Shown one piece after another: positions 236 to 12,336 of a stretch of DNA of 24,113 nt. Source of the stretch: Escherichia coli (GTDB taxonomy: Bacteria; Pseudomonadota; Gammaproteobacteria; Enterobacterales; Enterobacteriaceae). The stretch lies in assembly GCF_003334355.1 (NCBI RefSeq), contig NZ_QOWP01000044.1, one strand, 5' to 3'. The first letter of the stretch is position 1. Each line of letters opens with the position of its first letter. A program made the translations under genes and the position numbers. Below the pieces are notes generated by a model that searched no databases, had not been told where the DNA came from, and saw only the letters and a list, made by a program, of their open reading frames with translations.

Positions 236-556
236 TTAATTTGCTGCGGCTTTTTTAATCGCTGCAACCGCAGCCTTAAGCACGCCTAAACCATCGACTT
301 TGCCATAAAGCAGCGAGTCAATTACTTCAACCGGTTTGTTGGGTAACAAACGCTGGATTTCGGGCAACATATAAGCAATCTGCGGCCCTAATAACACGAC
401 ATCGGCATTCTGACCTTTTTCACCAGCCAGTGTTTCCGGAAATGCTTCAATAATGACCGGAACTTCATATTTTTCTGCCTGTGCGCGCATTTTTGATACC
501 AGTAAAGAGGTAGACATGCCCGCAGAACAAAACAGATAAATGTGTTTCTTTTCCAT
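236..556 (-). CDS. chbB: PTS chitobiose-specific EIIB component
   Basis: 106-aa [23 protein letters not shown]... with the CSAGMSTS phospho-cysteine loop typical of lactose/cellobiose-family EIIB; same length as K-12 ChbB. Confidence 0.92.
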
Positions 557-793
557 AAAACTGCCCTCATCGACGATTATCTGTCAGCCAGACACTCCGC
601 AAGCCTTAACCTGCTTCCATGCTCTGGGTAACTTGCGAAACCAACATGACTTTTTTTGTGGCTGAAAGGAGTATACGGTATAGACCTGAGCAATAGTATT
701 TCTTTGACCTTATAAATTGTTTCTCCTTGACCTGTGGTTATGACCCTCTTCACATTTCGGGCAAATAATTCGCGAAGATAATTAAGAACTCAG
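557..793 (-). promoter_or_regulatory. chb operon promoter/operator region (known to be controlled by NagC, ChbR and CRP); contains a direct repeat TTGACCT at 704-710 and 727-733
   Basis: Non-coding region upstream of chbB; repeats seen directly. Assignment of binding proteins is from established knowledge of the chb promoter, not mapped here. Confidence 0.4.
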
Positions 794-853: not shown

Positions 854-1192
854 TTACTTCGCAGCCTGTGGATCAGTGTCGTATTCAGCACAGGTCTGAT
901 AACCGGAGTTGATGACATGTCCGGTATCATCTAACGCGACAAAGTAGGTTTCTGCTTTACCATCACGTTGACCCAGGATGTAGGTCTGGCAAGTACCGCG
1001 AGCATGGATCATGCTCACTTCAGACGAAGGTTTACCCGCAATTTGTGCAACCTGCGCCCGGCTCATGCCTTTTTTGACGTCTTTCACCACAGGCTGTACA
1101 AACTGGTCTTTGGTACGATCATAAGCCGTACAACCCGCCAGCATGGTTAATACCGCCGCTGCACTCAGAATTCCTGCCATATTCTTGTTCAT
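854..1192 (-). CDS. osmE: Osmotically inducible lipoprotein OsmE
   Basis: 112-aa ORF with signal peptide and lipobox (LAGC); recognised as OsmE; position between chbB and nadE as in K-12. Confidence 0.9.
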
Positions 1193-12170: not shown

Positions 12171-12336
12171 TTTAGCAGCTCTCCTGGCTCAAACTGGGTC
12201 AGGAGAATTAACCTTGAGAAAAATCAACAAACTGTCAGTAATGATTTGTTGCCTGCCGTCCTTTGTTATACCGTCTCTGCGTTTTTAGTTGTCTGACCAC
12301 TTCTCTATTATCAAGTTTGATATAGGAAACCCCACG

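Follow-up and report, generated by a model that had tools for sequence, protein, structure and literature searches.

At the araBAD promoter, AraC, a regulator with a cupin domain and two helix-turn-helix motifs, binds araI1 and araI2, tandem boxes of the same orientation with a period of 21 bp, of which the distal box is strong and the proximal box is weak. The proximal box lies over the -35 position of a promoter that has no usable -35 element, a CAP site is situated just upstream, and AraC also uses a distant site, O2. RhaS/RhaR (at rhaBAD and rhaSR) and MelR (at melAB) are further AraC-family sugar regulators with paired boxes of ~17-19 bp beside a CRP site, the proximal box again reaching the -35 region. 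ChbR, the regulator of the chbBCARFG chitobiose operon, has reportedly been footprinted on two 19-bp direct repeats between NagC sites. The K-12 chbB operator consists of these two repeats upstream of chbB with a CAP site and a NagC operator flanking them, and the ChbR operator of the chb promoter is an already known element in K-12. ChbR is placed in the AraC family (PMC4797297), is recorded as a dimer (PMC10767902), and is a dual regulator, repressing in concert with NagC and activating in the presence of chitobiose; chb repression differs from that of araBAD in needing a second protein, NagC (PMC3551598).

The window, by which we mean the whole stretch of 24,113 nucleotides of E. coli DNA that was analysed, contains the 297-bp osmE–chbB intergenic region of the chromosome, where the repeat under study is located, with nadE as the next gene in the neighbourhood. 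Since the chb operon lies on the minus strand, its promoter must be read as the reverse complement of approximately 557-800. From the chbB ATG to about position 800 the sequence is identical, base for base, to that of K-12 MG1655, and over 540-860 the sole difference is one T in the T-run of the osmE terminator; the promoter is therefore the K-12 sequence, and knowledge of the K-12 chbB promoter transfers directly. Of 5426 complete E. coli genomes, 5417 have a single copy of a 161-bp promoter core (at ≥95% identity), and both heptamers of the repeat are kept in the sampled E. coli variants of this core. Read along the sense strand of chb, the layout runs from the NagC distal operator through a CAP-type site and two boxes, R1 and R2, to the -10 hexamer, and the features of the region are as follows.

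854-1192, minus strand: osmE, flanking the chbB promoter region on its other side.
764-786, minus strand: NagC distal operator, CTTAATTATCTTCGCGAATTATT, at about -123 to -101, upstream of the CAP-type site and R1.
739-754, strand not assigned: predicted CAP/CRP-type site, TGTGAAGAGGGTCATA, centred at about -83.5 and including TGACCC at 741-746.
733 to 715, minus strand: R1, the promoter-distal box, AGGTCAAGGAGAAACAATT, at about -70 to -52, including the second TTGACCT copy (727-733).
711-714, minus strand: TATA, the 4-bp spacer between R1 and R2, read from the sequence, with columns that are not conserved in orthologues.
710 to 692, minus strand: R2, the promoter-proximal box, AGGTCAAAGAAATACTATT, at about -47 to -29, including the first TTGACCT copy (704-710), its 3′ end lying over the -35 position.
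670-675, minus strand: -10 hexamer TATACT, within CGTATACT, which is invariant in Enterobacterales promoters.
649-671, minus strand: tentative candidate for a proximal NagC operator, CTCCTTTCAGCCACAAAAAAAGT, of weak type, which would cover the start site at a distance of 115 bp from the distal operator.
236-556, minus strand: chbB coding sequence, from the open reading frame and its translation, annotated as chbB in E. coli genomes; the first gene under the promoter.

The preliminary description had reported TTGACCT on the plus strand at 704-710 and 727-733, 23 bp from start to start, together with TGACCC at 741-746, and all of these coordinates are exact. Taken as heptamers, the two copies could have arisen by chance, the intergenic region being AT-rich, and could lack any function of their own: TTGACCT occurs three times in the window against 2.0 expected, with a single copy outside the pair, 27% of the dinucleotide-shuffled versions of the intergenic region contain an exact 7-mer direct repeat at a distance of 15-35 bp, and a repeat search with a seed of 6 did not pick up the pair. 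On the sense strand of chb, however, the heptamers (AGGTCAA) are the 5′ cores of longer boxes, R1 and R2, which have the same orientation and a 23-bp period, are identical at 15 of 19 bases and form the best such pair of the region, a match equalled by only 26 of 5000 shuffles. Scored with a weight matrix built from the R1 boxes of other species only, R1 (28.7 bits) and R2 (19.6 bits) are the top two among 48,190 positions of the window, the next reaching 12.9 bits. The shuffles and the matrix together indicate that the direct repeat is real and significant at a length of 19 bp rather than 7, whereas the heptamer pair as first described does not go beyond chance. A fortuitous origin, which is also contradicted by the near-invariance and fixed geometry of R1 in 75 orthologous promoters described below, thus appears extremely improbable.

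A third in-phase box, AGGTCT at 687 to 682, was considered and rejected, as its 19-mer (669-687, overlapping the -10 hexamer) scored -4.4 bits and its pentamer is variable within the species (one E. coli strain has AGGCCT); its continuation of the 23-bp period is probably a coincidence.

Because TTGACC matches the -35 consensus TTGACA at five of six positions, the plus-strand copies might instead be read as -35 hexamers of rightward promoters running antisense to osmE, and a consensus scan did return one plus-strand promoter-like site nearby (ATGACC at 740, followed by AATAAT, 9 of 12 positions). With 0.5 hits expected, that one site does not exceed chance, and it uses neither TTGACCT copy; inspection revealed no acceptable -10 hexamer at 16-18 bp after either copy, and the only features downstream on the plus strand are the osmE terminator and antisense osmE. 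Furthermore, what is conserved is a stretch of 19 bp rather than a hexamer, and it is asymmetric in the manner of a protein-binding box, so that we attach hardly any probability to rightward promoters as the source of the repeat.

The osmE terminator just mentioned is represented by an inverted repeat, AAACCGGC/GCCGGTTT, at 801-822, which is followed by a T-run on the minus strand and lies directly upstream of the NagC distal operator. By appearance it looks like an intrinsic terminator, and the terminator scan of the region did not call this hairpin.

The TGACCC element had been described as a further, related copy of the repeat, a reading that does not hold. The element is the reverse complement of GGGTCA in the dyad of the predicted CAP/CRP-type site TGTGAAGAGGGTCATA, which matches TGTGA-N6-TCACA at nine of ten defined positions. 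In most Enterobacterales promoters a match to TGTGA-N6-TCAnA precedes R1, always at a distance of exactly 21 bp; about ten promoters, mainly of Enterobacter, have a variant right half (TCAAC or other) and do not match. A ChbR site of three boxes with TGACCC as the third would draw on the resemblance of GGGTCA (746 to 741) to AGGTCA. Nevertheless, with its start 13 bp rather than 23 bp upstream of R1, the element is out of step with the period of the repeat, no 19-mer containing TGACCC reaches 6 bits with the box matrix, and a CAP-type site, TGTGA-N6-TCATA, which has a fixed position in most orthologous promoters, accounts for the element as its right half. It was consequently ruled out as a repeat copy, and a three-box operator is very improbable.

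The preliminary description had also placed the repeat between NagC sites, and the published distal operator agrees with this on the upstream side, where R1 and R2 lie downstream of 764-786 and upstream of the -10 hexamer. The sequence of 764-786 is listed as 'chbB distal' among the known NagC operators (PMC3098098, Table 1), and it comes first in the whole window, with 16.9 bits, when the matrix is derived from the other nine operators of that table. Its centre is located 42 bp upstream of the R1 start in 63 orthologous promoters. A scan of the window with the same matrix gave no convincing proximal operator; the 23-mer at 648-670, which overlaps the tentative candidate over the start site, is a weak match (0.1 bits), and the equivalent position in the orthologues (centre offset 73) reaches at least 6 bits in only six promoters. 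The second-best NagC match of the window, GATTTTTCTCAAGGTTAATTCTC at 12203-12225 (12.8 bits, the nine training operators scoring 16.6-24.4), is probably not a real NagC site. In the full-text papers searched, no printed copy of the R1 and R2 sequences was found, the NagC distal operator being the only one of these elements met with there.

The conserved -10 hexamer would put the chb start site (+1) at about 663, which places the chbB ATG at +108, and R2 ends at 692, 16 bp before the hexamer (675 to 670). By inspection, the positions 16-18 bp upstream of TATACT match TTGACA at only one or two of six bases, and a consensus sigma-70 scan called nothing on the chb strand. A missing -35 element and a missing promoter call are as expected for an activator-dependent promoter.

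To place the repeat in a comparative frame, GTDB species genomes were scanned once with ChbB, which gave 80 loci from Escherichia, Salmonella, Citrobacter, Enterobacter, the Klebsiella group, Cedecea, Buttiauxella, Proteus and Aeromonas, and column statistics were taken over 75 distinct Enterobacterales promoters, from Escherichia to Proteus. The consensus of R1 is AGGTCAAnGAGAGACAATT; the box was recovered at all but one of the 80 loci (79), and 16 of its 19 positions are near-invariant over the 75 promoters. The distance from the R1 start to the invariant CGTATACT is 56 bp in all Enterobacterales promoters but one, where it is 57 bp. The chbR gene is found downstream in all 69 Enterobacterales loci that extend far enough. 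When both strands of the 80 promoters were searched with the R1 matrix, additional hits of at least 8 bits fell on the same strand only, and almost only at +23 and at +65/66 from the R1 start.

R2 has a different history in its two halves. All Enterobacterales promoters compared share its 3′ half (G-A-W-T-A-Y-C), which lies over the -35 position, whereas its 5′ half GGTCAA, which holds the first TTGACC copy, is conserved in Escherichia, Salmonella and Citrobacter only. R1 is thus near-invariant and the R2 3′ half is retained, the R2 copy of TTGACC is confined to three genera, and a pair of identical heptamers cannot be regarded as general to this operator. R1 is the conserved anchor, presumably of high affinity, and R2 the weaker box, which evolves faster.

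It could even be proposed that the ancestral functional operator consisted of R1 and the R2 3′ half only, the second GGTCAA (704-709) being a lineage-specific improvement that is not essential. Across Enterobacterales, offsets 23-30 from R1 carry almost no information and offsets 31-38 are conserved, and a +23 box of at least 8 bits occurs in 27 promoters, all of them from Escherichia, Salmonella and Citrobacter. On the other hand, E. coli retains both heptamers, since exact 41-mers spanning them are found in at least 2592 complete E. coli genomes, with near-exact ones in most others. Such an origin, which seems to us possible, if on the doubtful side, would refine the assignment of the two boxes to ChbR and does not contradict it.

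Within R1, position 13 (window position 721) is A in the window and in K-12 (GAGAAACA), whereas the other Enterobacterales promoters examined nearly all have G (GAGAGACA), the A being shared by one further locus only. Of the 5426 complete E. coli genomes, 2335 have the A-type 41-mer and 2817 the G-type, and the two alleles represent a frequent natural polymorphism within the ChbR box.

According to the above comparative and positional evidence, and to the background on the K-12 operator, it is very likely that the TTGACCT heptamers are the cores of the tandem boxes R1 and R2, which would jointly form the ChbR operator. The assignment of the repeat to the AraC-family regulator ChbR, put forward in the preliminary description, is therefore supported by the identity of the promoter with that of K-12, the conservation and geometry of R1, the co-occurrence with chbR, and an AraC-type tandem layout that ends at the -35 position. 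K-12 ChbR matches the NCBIfam equivalog model NF007633 (ChbR) with 585 bits, its Pfam domains are Cupin_2/AraC_binding at 28-81, HTH_AraC at 190-223 and 234-273, and HTH_18 at 201-273, and RhaS and MelR are among its best NCBIfam matches other than itself. This domain plan, a ligand-binding/dimerisation part followed by two helix-turn-helix motifs, is that of an AraC/XylS-type tandem activator, and so is the position of R2 over the -35 region of a promoter that lacks a -35 consensus. The 23-bp period, being slightly above two helical turns, was counted against the ChbR assignment.

Judging from the general behaviour of AraC-family proteins and from the reviews cited above, we infer that a ChbR dimer could place one two-helix-turn-helix DNA-binding domain on each of R1 and R2. 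With the inducer present and cAMP–CAP bound just upstream, the subunit on R2 would bring in RNA polymerase at a promoter that presumably cannot work unaided and would need recruitment by ChbR and CAP. When the inducer is absent, ChbR would stay bound and, together with NagC at the flanking operators, hold the promoter shut.

Compared with the described systems, the chb boxes share with araI1–araI2 the tandem arrangement in one orientation for a cupin and double-helix-turn-helix regulator, the proximal box over a -35 position without a usable element, the CAP site just upstream, and the pairing of a strong distal with a weak proximal box. They differ in their period (23 bp versus 21 bp), and no ChbR counterpart of the distant O2 site was found within 330 bp in E. 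coli, nor is such a site known to us. The RhaS/RhaR and MelR sites are similar in the size of their paired boxes, the adjacent CRP site and the reach of the proximal box; nevertheless, the Rha sites are inverted repeats in contrast to the direct repeats of ChbR, and the Rha and MelR box sequences are unrelated to those of ChbR. Relative to the K-12 chbB operator, the element itself has the same sequence and shows no differences, and what sets the present locus apart is that chbC is cut by IS1 and the window contains no chbR.

The second class of additional hits raises the possibility of another mode of repression in other genera. A strong ChbR-like box on the same strand begins at +65/66 from the R1 start in 23 promoters of Proteus, Buttiauxella, Cedecea, some Enterobacter and Aeromonas (loci L058-L079 and others; for example CATTCAAGCAGAAACAATC in L058), where it lies over the predicted start site at about -5 to +14, and no promoter combines it with a strong +23 box (23 versus 27 promoters). 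The equivalent position in the window, 650-668, scores -7.4 bits. The sequence TCAAGCAGAAACAAT occurs in the +65 box of the Proteus mirabilis promoter. On this positional evidence, ChbR might originally have repressed through a second strong box over the start, which would have decayed in Escherichia, Salmonella and Citrobacter, and the stretch may now hold a weak proximal NagC operator. We regard this scenario as rather unlikely, and its reading is confounded by phylogeny, as few independent lineages are involved. If it were true, a NagC operator in this stretch would account for the fact that repression in E. coli depends on NagC as well as on ChbR.

The repeat belongs to an operator of textbook type, its regulator has already been characterised in E. 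coli and its promoter does not differ from that of K-12, so that it holds little discovery value; the alternative start-site box of other genera is the one lead of mild novelty. The main value of the analysis is that a real regulatory site was recognised correctly from raw sequence. Beyond that, the near-invariant R1, the half-conserved R2 and the rigid spacing between the CAP-type site, R1 and the -10 hexamer could be used in modelling ChbR specificity or in engineering chb promoters, for which the +65 box of other genera and the A/G polymorphism in the E. coli R1 supply further modest detail.

The genetic context of the operator in this strain is disrupted. Bases 1-77 of the window are the terminal part of an IS1 copy, a sequence with many matches per E. 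coli genome that are annotated as IS1 family transposase, and the insertion truncates chbC after codon 24, leaving a remnant at 78-151 (24 residues, with the ATG at 151). No match to chbR was found anywhere in the 24-kb window by tblastn. With the operon broken by IS1 and no chbR in the window, the operator is present here without its operon and, locally, without its regulator, and may be non-functional in this particular strain. The annotation of strain WP7-S17-ESBL-04 shows a chb deletion associated with IS1 that is similar to the present one without being the same. The chbB–chbC spacer (152-235), which we take to be the decoy region for the small RNA ChiX, is intact despite the truncation of chbC. 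The chb mRNA has been reviewed as a decoy for ChiX (PMC4098024), the review itself not assigning this role to the spacer.
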